Position numbers and translations under genes: made by a program. Below are positions 15,818-16,927 of a stretch of DNA of 64,000 nucleotides, one piece after another. Location: contig JAEWOE010000006.1 in NCBI GenBank assembly GCA_023460995.1, forward strand, positions 774,927 through 838,926, in the 5' to 3' direction. Source of the DNA: Bacillota bacterium (lineage in GTDB: Bacteria > Bacillota_I > Bacilli_A > RF39 > UBA660). Position 1 is the stretch's first letter. Every line of letters starts with the position of its first letter. The notes beneath the pieces were generated by a model. It was given only the letters and a program-made list of their open reading frames with translations. It searched no databases and was not told the DNA's origin.

Positions 15818-16927
15818 ATGGAAAAAGAAGGATTTACATTAATTGAACTATTAGCTGTTATATTGATATTAGGAATAATAGCATTAATAGCAATACCAAT
15901 AGTTAGTAATATTATAAAAGAAAGTAAAAGAGGGGCATTTGAAACTACAGCTAATAATGTAGTAAGTGCAATAGAAGATGCTTGTCAGCTTCAAACACTA
16001 AAAGGTGAGACATTAACAACAACTTATACATTTAGTGATGGTGATGTGTCACCAAGTTTAAATATCAAAGGATCATTACCAGAAGAAGGAACTGCAACAG
16101 TAAACTCTAATTGTAATGTTAATTTAAGCGTAAACAATGGAAAATTTACGGCTACTAAAGATGCATCATCAGATACTATAACAGTAGTTGATGGTGTAGA
16201 AACACCACAATTACCAACAGTTTATCCAGTATATGCAAATGGAACTGCTGTATACTTTAATCCTGTGACTGGTGCAAAATGTACAGCAGGAGAAGCAGTA
16301 AGTACAACAGGAACAAAAACTGGATGTATGAAGTGGTATACATTTAATGATGGTGGAGCATCAACTGATACAATTAACTTAATATTAGACCATAACACAA
16401 CTGCCACAGTAGCTTGGAATCCTACAGTAAGTAATGTGAGTGGTCCAACAAACGTAATCACACAACTTCAAACTGACACTAGTTCTTGGGCAGGAGTGAT
16501 AACAAGAACAGATAGTTATAGTGTAAGTAATGGAACAGCGACATATACAATAAATTACAGTACATATAAGGCTAGACTAATAACAGCGGGGGAAATTGCT
16601 ACAATAACAGGAAATAGTAGTTTTGCAGAAGCAACTACTACGTCTTCAAATTGGTTTTATTTAGACAGTAACACACAAAATAAAACTGCAACTACAACTG
16701 GAGCAAGTAATTATGATTGGCTATTTGATTATACAAAAAGTTGTACTAGTTCCGGATGCAATATTGCTGATGCTAGTAATTCAGGATATTGGACATCTAC
16801 AGCCGTCTCTAGCACTACTGACAACACTTGGCTCGTGAGTTGGCAAGGCAACTTAGGCAGAAACGCAGGCTATGCGGACTTCTACGGTGTTCGTCCAGTT
16901 ATAACTATCTTAAAATCTAATTTCTAA
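15818..16927 (+). CDS. Modular pilin: prepilin N-terminus plus pilin head plus C-terminal DUF1566-like (lectin-like) domain
   Basis: MEKEGFTLIELLAVILILGIIALIAIP class III signal; C-terminal ARLITAGEIATI...YWTSTAVS...W.V....G.......GVRPVITIL matches the DUF1566 (Lcl C-terminal) pattern WRLPT.EL/YWSST..aw.v.f.G...vRcV; GGAGGA RBS before ATG 15818. Confidence 0.75.
   Translation: MEKEGFTLIELLAVILILGIIALIAIPIVSNIIKESKRGAFETTANNVVSAIEDACQLQTLKGETLTTTYTFSDGDVSPSLNIKGSLPEEGTATVNSNCNVNLSVNNGKFTATKDASSDTITVVDGVETPQLPTVYPVYANGTAVYFNPVTGAKCTAGEAVSTTGTKTGCMKWYTFNDGGASTDTINLILDHNTTATVAWNPTVSNVSGPTNVITQLQTDTSSWAGVITRTDSYSVSNGTATYTINYSTYKARLITAGEIATITGNSSFAEATTTSSNWFYLDSNTQNKTATTTGASNYDWLFDYTKSCTSSGCNIADASNSGYWTSTAVSSTTDNTWLVSWQGNLGRNAGYADFYGVRPVITILKSNF

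Follow-up and report, generated by a model that had tools for sequence, protein, structure and literature searches.

How type IV pili, which are ubiquitous organelles of adhesion and motility, gain their ligand specificity is an open question to which modular pilins provide one answer. This question is raised by a 64,000-nucleotide stretch of DNA (the window) from an uncultured Bacillota bacterium (assembly GCA_023460995.1, contig JAEWOE010000006.1, positions 774,927 to 838,926), in which three paralogous genes, c1, c2 and c3, each encode a prepilin leader joined to a large C-terminal head. Of what kind is this head, where is it displayed, and why is its variability between relatives concentrated in one short segment, between the motifs GYWTSTA and GVRPVIT? 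The answer that we consider likely is that the three proteins are modular type IV pilins with a C-type lectin (C-lectin) head of the DUF6273 type, and that in c1 and c2 the tip of this head is the variable region (VR) of a diversity-generating retroelement (DGR). To our knowledge, DGRs are the only known prokaryotic system for targeted protein hypermutation, used by bacteria and phages to rewrite binding surfaces rapidly, and cellular (non-phage) roles have so far been worked out for Bacteroides type V pili. The VR is the main feature of the locus and was absent from the initial annotation of the three genes. The features concerned are as follows.

15818..16927, + strand: c1, an intact modular prepilin gene, 369 aa, leader MEKEG/FTLIE (the slash separates G-1 from F+1)
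16232..16924, + strand: C-terminal head of c1, predicted C-type-lectin-like fold of DUF6273 type, 231 aa (residues 139-369, the pilin module extending to about residue 138)
16805..16898, + strand: VR of c1, residues 330-361 of 369, a partly decayed DGR footprint, one codon shorter than the template
18879..19991, + strand: c2, 370 codons, a paralogue interrupted by an in-frame TAA
19866..19962, + strand: VR of c2, 97 nt, residues 330-362, the cleanest DGR signature in the window
22757..23854, + strand: c3, an intact and more divergent 365-aa paralogue with the architecture of c1

As initially annotated, three paralogous prepilin open reading frames (ORFs) are present on the + strand, each with a prepilin leader (M-x-K-x-G/FTLIELLAVILILGIIALIAIP; MEKEG/FTLIELLAVILILGIIALIAIP in c1), and all of the motifs then listed occur in c1, c2 and c3, namely KARLITAGEIATI, GYWTSTA, (A/T)WxV and a terminal GVRPVITILKS(N/E)(F/L). 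The gene bodies of c1 and c2 are 85% identical in DNA sequence and both are ~70% identical to that of c3, a similarity far beyond chance, and the three are monocistronic paralogues. Of the three, c1 and c3 are intact, whereas c2 has an in-frame TAA at 19353-19355, where the c1 codon is GAA (Glu159), and the public gene call divides c2 into 158 and 200 aa. Thus c2, in which the DGR signature is cleanest, is a pseudogene, or else the assembly has an error or a polymorphism at the TAA site.

The VRs of c1 and c2 are built of NNC codons, with a G+C content of 0.52-0.61 versus 0.24-0.40 elsewhere in the genes. At third codon positions (GC3), the values are 0.56 in the VR versus 0.12 in the gene body for c1, and 0.69 versus 0.14 for c2; the equivalent segment of c3 has ordinary A+T-rich codons, with a GC3 of 0.09 versus 0.17 in the body. 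A spike in G+C and GC3 was seen in 42 of 100 copies across metagenome-assembled genomes (MAGs). When the 3′-ends of all copies were compared with all loci, one non-genic site was found, positions 9225-9321 of locus L006, to which dozens of VRs can be aligned and whose adenines account for the great majority of the mismatches. This template repeat (TR) is non-coding, is positioned ~265 nt upstream of a pilin paralogue and reads GTC TCT GGC AAT ACT AAT AAC GCT TGG AAC GTG AAT AGG AAC GGC AAC TTG AAC AAC AAC AAC GTA GAT AAT ACG GAC AAC AAC GGG GTG CGC CCA G, with the translation VSGNTNNAWNVNRNGNLNNNNVDNTDNNGVRP. Its homology to the genes has abrupt limits, GTCTCT at one end and GTGCGCCCAG at the other. 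A metagenome scan with the TR core GCTTGGAACGTGAATAGGAACGGCAAC identified one extra copy, on the metagenome contig L077, which differs at 4 of 97 positions and has the arrangement seen in L006.

With this TR, which comes from sister MAGs and not from the window genome, as the reference, the VR of c2 has changes at 18 of 35 template adenines versus 3 of 62 other positions (Fisher p = 1.8e-7) and that of c1, in which one codon is missing, at 16 of 33 versus 11 of 61 (p = 2e-3). Only 55 nt of c3 could be aligned to the TR, and c3 has no VR by this comparison. Throughout the family, an adenine bias at p < 0.01 is present in 28 of the 78 alignable copies. The same pattern is apparent in the proteins: across 76 diverse relatives, mean column entropy is 3.48 bits for the 19 codons in which the template has an adenine at the first or second position, versus 1.38 bits for the other 13 (p = 5e-6), and the mean for the rest of the head is 1.79 bits. 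Both c1 and c2 therefore have a VR with a cognate TR and adenine-biased differences, located at the C-terminus of the C-lectin head, and the AAY-derived codons of this region are unable to become stop codons. The DUF1566-like motif on which the initial annotation was based is conserved partly because it frames this VR. At non-adenine positions, the VR of c2 is 95% identical to the L006 TR, versus 85% identity between the c2 gene body and the L006 pilin gene, which fits recopying of the VR from a conserved template.

The enzymes required for such copying are encoded beside pilins of this family in a sister genome. Of 87 loci searched by tblastn for reverse transcriptase (RT), Avd and MutS_I, four were positive (L013, L084, L085 and L086), none of them from the window genome. 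The L013 locus (MAG STE_87) contains the following.

4135-8042: complete DGR cassette with a gene for a 549-aa prepilin that has an FGE-sulfatase-like C-lectin head
5629-5788: VR of this prepilin
5928-6087: adjacent TR (TR-A), 91% identical to the VR
After the prepilin and TR, in order: a MutS-domain-I ORF, bAvd, RT and two pilins of the DUF6273-headed family

The bAvd product matches PF22296 (E 6e-22) and the NCBIfam model DivGenRetAVD (82.8 bits, cut-off 80), and the RT matches RVT_1 (E 3e-16) and has the motifs IGNYTSQ...YMDD. The trio of MutS_I, Avd and RT recurs in L085 and in L088, the latter, with MutS_I, bAvd and RT, from another sample than the window. A 96-nt repeat, 97% identical in its two copies and consisting of TGTCGTACTGGTAACTCTAACGCACCA... 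and then a terminator-like hairpin, is present in L013 just after RT (8096-8191) and after the first pilin gene (9431-9526), and its 5′-part also follows RT in L084 (~1470-1500). Two features lie ahead of the TR in L006 (8176-9321): a truncated gene for a serine recombinase (Resolvase N-terminal) and an ORF of 90 aa, homologues of which are found after RT in L084 (1574-1657) and ahead of the TR in L077. There are hints here of an ancestral order of RT, small ORF, TR and pilin that may have been broken up in L006.

We propose that the three genes belong to a large family of modular type IV pilins in uncultured, low-G+C, spore-forming Bacilli. In each protein, a class III signal peptide is followed by a pilin alpha-beta module, a short linker rich in Pro and Thr, and a head of ~230 residues. 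Prepilin peptidase would process the pilin module, which would then enter a type IV filament, where it would probably be a minor subunit or occupy the tip, and the head would be exposed as an adhesin. In c1 and c2, the VR is made up of the final ~32 codons of this head, presumably a beta-hairpin and loops directly before the invariant GVRPVIT strand. The AAC/AAT-rich, non-coding TR would be transcribed and copied, with adenine-specific errors, by an Avd-assisted RT, and the cDNA would replace the VR, with a directionality suggested by the shared G+C-rich GGTGTGCGCCCAG end. In this way, 19 surface codons could be rewritten without producing stop codons. The c2 gene would carry a recent imprint, with its nonsense codon elsewhere in the gene, c1 an older and partly decayed one, and c3 would be a static paralogue. 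Of this proposal, the architecture, the fold, the VR-TR relationship with its adenine bias, and the occurrence of Avd and RT beside such pilins in a sister genome are shown, whereas display on pili, the class of ligand and the persistence and activity of the DGR in the window genome are conjectural. More tentatively, one or more stand-alone TRs may act in trans, so that a chromosomal DGR would diversify a dispersed pilin family with at least 8 DUF6273-headed members, and at least 15 prepilins, per genome.

Two sets of observations weigh against this proposal, one concerning the DGR and the other the pilus. The TRs of L006 and L077 are not adjacent to an intact RT, and TR-A in L013 serves a different pilin, the one with the FGE-sulfatase-like head, so that the tie between the L013 RT and the TR for DUF6273-type heads is one that we infer. 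Searches of the 64-kb window and of ~145 kb of its contig (~15% of the 959 kb, reached through paralogues) revealed neither RT nor Avd nor a TR, whereas all three are present beside family members in L013. A relaxed blastn search for a TR inside the window was also negative, none of the top 120 RT homologues is on the contig of the window, and none of five close RT homologues in ENA is from its sample. An abhydrolase-Mur ligase-Ddl block is preceded in L085 by TR, MutS_I, Avd and RT (L085 1-2085); in the window genome (L081 2165-3294) a cation ATPase, a 162-aa ORF and NfeD are found ahead of it instead, and no cassette is present at the syntenic site. Furthermore, c1 departs from the TR at 11 non-adenine positions and by a 3-nt indel, and the assembly shows c2 as a pseudogene, so the DGR may be extinct in the window genome. 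That c1 and c2 are fossil targets, diversified in an ancestor or in relatives, with RT and TR since lost here, the VRs frozen and decaying and c2 a pseudogene, is a serious possibility, if to our minds a little short of an even chance. Such a history draws on the absent genes, the empty syntenic site, the origin of all of the close RT homologues examined from other samples, the mismatches and indel in c1 and the nonsense codon in c2. Set against these, the inspected DNA is ~15% of the contig, DGR cassettes are often found on short contigs of their own in assemblies, and the excess of VR over gene-body identity in c2 argues for recent homing. On the reading that we prefer, of pilin heads diversified by a DGR, the copies in the window bear its imprint, c2 a recent one and c1 an older one, with current activity unproven.

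The second set of observations concerns the pilus. A PilB/T2SSE Walker-A motif was sought in all related loci (~1.3 Mb) and none was found, nor were pilus machinery genes found in the window, so display of the heads on pili is suggested by the signal peptide and fold alone. The N-termini match PF07963 N_methyl (24.4-30.2 bits, cut-off 21.2) and TIGR02532 (28.4 and 32.3 bits, cut-off 16.3), and they have the features of a class III signal peptide, with a short basic leader, G-1/F+1/E+5 and a hydrophobic helix. A 44-sequence profile matched solved type IV pilins in the PDB over residues 1-110 (best E 4e-10), and the AlphaFold2 model of full-length c1 (predicted local distance difference test, pLDDT, 91) has a helix at residues 8-62 followed by beta-strands at 69-125, with a pLDDT of 84-91 in the pilin region; the predicted structure thus has the pilin alpha-beta fold. 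Alternatively, the prepilin-like N-terminus could provide for export or membrane anchoring, or for a Com-type or type II secretion system-like pseudopilus, with the head at the cell surface. We consider this unlikely. There is no assembly machinery near any family member, and prepilin-motif genes (nine in the window, at least 15 over ~145 kb of this genome) are all on the + strand, single and scattered among housekeeping genes; the best NCBIfam similarities of the N-termini, all weak, are to ComGC, GspG and ComGE. However, G-1/F+1/E+5 is canonical and the pilin alpha-beta module complete, it is common for pilin genes to lie apart from those for the machinery, and the modular pilins PilB and PilC of S. 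sanguinis, a monoderm, do enter pili (PMC8179133, PMC9934059).

The head had been assigned to DUF1566 (PF07603, Lcl_C), with the suggestion that it binds glycosaminoglycans as does the Legionella protein Lcl. The fold has held up, in that the predicted structure of the head can be superimposed on the C-terminal domain of Lcl and has the C-type-lectin-like fold, with a structural likeness also to known DUF6273 domains. The family has not. The PF07603 likeness is real but very weak, limited to a C-terminal fragment of c2 (14.4 bits against a cut-off of 34.9, E = 0.047, positions 74-116 of the hidden Markov model), with no match to c1 or c3 and none at E<=0.01 among the 76 diverse relatives. PF19789 (DUF6273) also matches the c2 head below its cut-off (16.8 bits against 23.5, E 0.0064) and leaves c1 and c3 unmatched; it does, however, match 17 of the 76 relatives at E<=0.01 (best 2.5e-6), whereas N_methyl is matched by 57 of the 76, and several homologues that are 60-80% identical have a precomputed PF19789 annotation. 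Since PF19789 is matched by 17 relatives and PF07603 by none, the heads appear to be a divergent branch of DUF6273 rather than of DUF1566. When viral models were compared, the best matches were DUF6273 proteins of gut phages (E 2e-4), and the first protein named DUF1566 ranked 26th. When the head was compared by tblastn with 50,697 phage genomes, nothing matched, and a recent phage origin is accordingly unsupported.

By sequence profile, the PDB yielded nothing for the head and only pilins for the N-terminus. In Foldseek, the full-length model gave a best E of 0.023 against the PDB, with sliding clamps dominant, which we judged to be an artefact of the two-domain model, and the head was therefore modelled alone. 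Matches of the head to the Pfam families T4BSS_DotI_IcmL, HET-s and PhiKZ_gp244 were all below their cut-offs and were dismissed as noise. With the head alone as query, HMMER identified 1,185 cluster representatives (50% identity), 233 of them at E<=1e-30. Across this family, the head domain is often repeated in tandem or placed after other modules, and a canonical prepilin motif is present at the start of about half of the top 145 head homologues. The 76 loci located on genome contigs represent ~20 MAGs of uncultured Bacilli/Bacillota, sampled from guts and from the environment, and there are many copies per genome.

It is very improbable that the heads are instead static lectins of the DUF1566/Lcl type, binding glycosaminoglycans at a pilus tip and differing between copies by ordinary paralogue divergence. 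DUF6273 domains match more closely, and ordinary divergence leaves the adenine-specific relation of VR to TR unexplained. The C-terminal domain of Lcl (PF07603; PDB 8q4e), which is 14% identical to the pilin heads, belongs to a collagen-stalked trimer without disulfides in which binding needs a Lys-lined cavity (PMC11162425), whereas the pilin heads are near-neutral or acidic (net charge -3, -2 and 0) and hypervariable, with two Cys pairs conserved at 155/170 and 309/314 and an extra N-terminal sub-region of ~100 residues. The analogy on which glycosaminoglycan binding had been proposed is therefore weak, and a ligand class can be put forward only by inference. Diversifying selection with gene conversion between paralogues and no retroelement, the 'TR' being a gene fragment, deserves almost no credence: the many paralogues per genome make conversion plausible and there is a recombinase fragment beside the L006 TR, but this TR is non-coding, has sharp homology limits and differs little from that of L077, adenine-specific mismatches occur in dozens of copies, NNC codons raise GC3 to 0.6-0.7 versus ~0.13 for the genome, and cassettes with bAvd and RT are associated with pilins of this lineage.

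To place these pilins among known ones, we take IPR011460, IPR011871 and IPR005532 to be DUF1566/Lcl-C, Fib_succ_major and FGE-sulfatase, respectively. The modular pilins already described number more than 1,200 and fall into 264 architectures, and Dataset S1 of that study lists pilins (IPR012902) with IPR011460 (7, plus 2 with a double module), with IPR011871 (40) and with IPR005532 (8) (PMC8179133). Given our reading of IPR011460, combinations of a pilin with DUF1566 are already on record. Binding modules grafted onto pilins are exemplified by the S. sanguinis proteins PilB (vWA) and PilC (lectin) (Raynaud et al. 2021, PMC8179133; Shahin et al. 2023, PMC9934059), which share with c1 to c3 a class III signal peptide, a small pilin module, a linker, a grafted ligand-binding module and a monoderm host. 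They differ in that the head is here a DUF6273-type C-lectin rather than ConA-like or vWA, the genes form a dispersed multigene family rather than a pil operon, and the head is DGR-diversified, which is undescribed for those pilins.

DUF1566 and DUF6273 are well-known DGR target folds, and pilin-like targets have been mentioned in passing in DGR surveys. In known C-lectin DGR variable proteins (Mtd of the Bordetella phage; Treponema TvpA, PDB 2y3c; DUF6273 phage targets or tentaclins, PMC10743442, PMC11792537), the carrier is a phage tail fibre or a lipoprotein and not, as here, a type IV pilin; here, in addition, the TR stands alone upstream of a pilin gene rather than beside RT, and there are many dispersed potential targets per genome. 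Also comparable are the tip adhesins of Bacteroides type V pili (Macadangdang et al. 2024, 10.1101/2024.11.15.621889), in which a pilus-borne C-lectin head is the target of a chromosomal DGR with Avd and a MutS-like (Msl) gene, like the trios in L013, L085 and L088. Type V pili, however, are assembled by strand exchange and belong to Bacteroidota, whereas the present proteins are type IV pilins of Bacilli. The same study describes the cellular DGR targets of Bacillota as mostly like phage receptor-binding proteins, with type IV pilins unmentioned. DUF6273 is also present at the N-terminus of the Thomasclavelia ramosa IgA peptidase (PDB 9qa6; PMC12237041, PMC12402451), where it is part of a sortase-anchored metallopeptidase rather than a pilin and is unreported as a DGR target.

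A literature search found no paper that explicitly links DGRs with type IV pilins. As modular pilins, the DGR folds and the type V DGR adhesins have already been described, the finding is not categorically new; what is new is a multigene family of type IV modular pilins, dispersed in the genome, in which a DGR with a stand-alone TR can reprogramme the DUF6273 head. If correct, this would be the first documented link between a DGR and a type IV filament, analogous to but independent of that in Bacteroides, and would extend the DGR principle to a second, unrelated pilus system in gut and environmental Bacilli. It would provide one conserved scaffold with 19 programmable codons and would explain the many scattered pilin genes per genome, and paralogue number multiplied by retroelement hypervariation would provide a combinatorial and rapidly rewritable repertoire of type IV adhesins.

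The window has a G+C content of 27% and corresponds to about 774.9-838.9 kb of contig k141_100495 in ENA ERZ27268749; its host is a spore-former, to judge from CotE, SpoIIIAH and GerM. Besides c1, c2 and c3, it contains the following prepilin-motif genes, together with a conserved block upstream of c1.

4-2028, + strand: C-terminal part of a 775-aa pilin
2127-4784, + strand: 885-aa pilin, the body of which has no Pfam domain
15700..15817, + strand: upstream block of c1, with a hairpin and T-run, promoter-like TTGCAA-17-TATTAT hexamers at 15728-15756 and a GGAGG ribosome-binding site
46597-49488, + strand: 963-aa pilin with immunoglobulin-like (Ig-like) and GBS_Bsp-like modules
58399-58794, + strand: plain 131-aa pilin, abutting the gene for the 907-aa pilin
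58794-61517, + strand: 907-aa pilin with DUF285, leucine-rich repeat and Ig-like modules
63640-end, + strand: prepilin-motif gene running off the end of the window

The upstream block is kept in front of all three copies, with the c2 hexamers at 18789-18817. A scan for promoters and terminators revealed no enrichment over shuffled sequences, and the evidence used here is the conservation of the block across copies alone. The genes that precede c1 and c2, at 14435-15652 (405 aa) and 17477-18709 (410 aa), are also paralogues, 74% identical, which indicates a tandem duplication of a two-gene unit of ~3 kb. Their products have an N-terminal transmembrane helix and belong to no Pfam family. A homologue that is 65% identical to them is encoded in L006 (13318-14505), downstream of its pilin pair.
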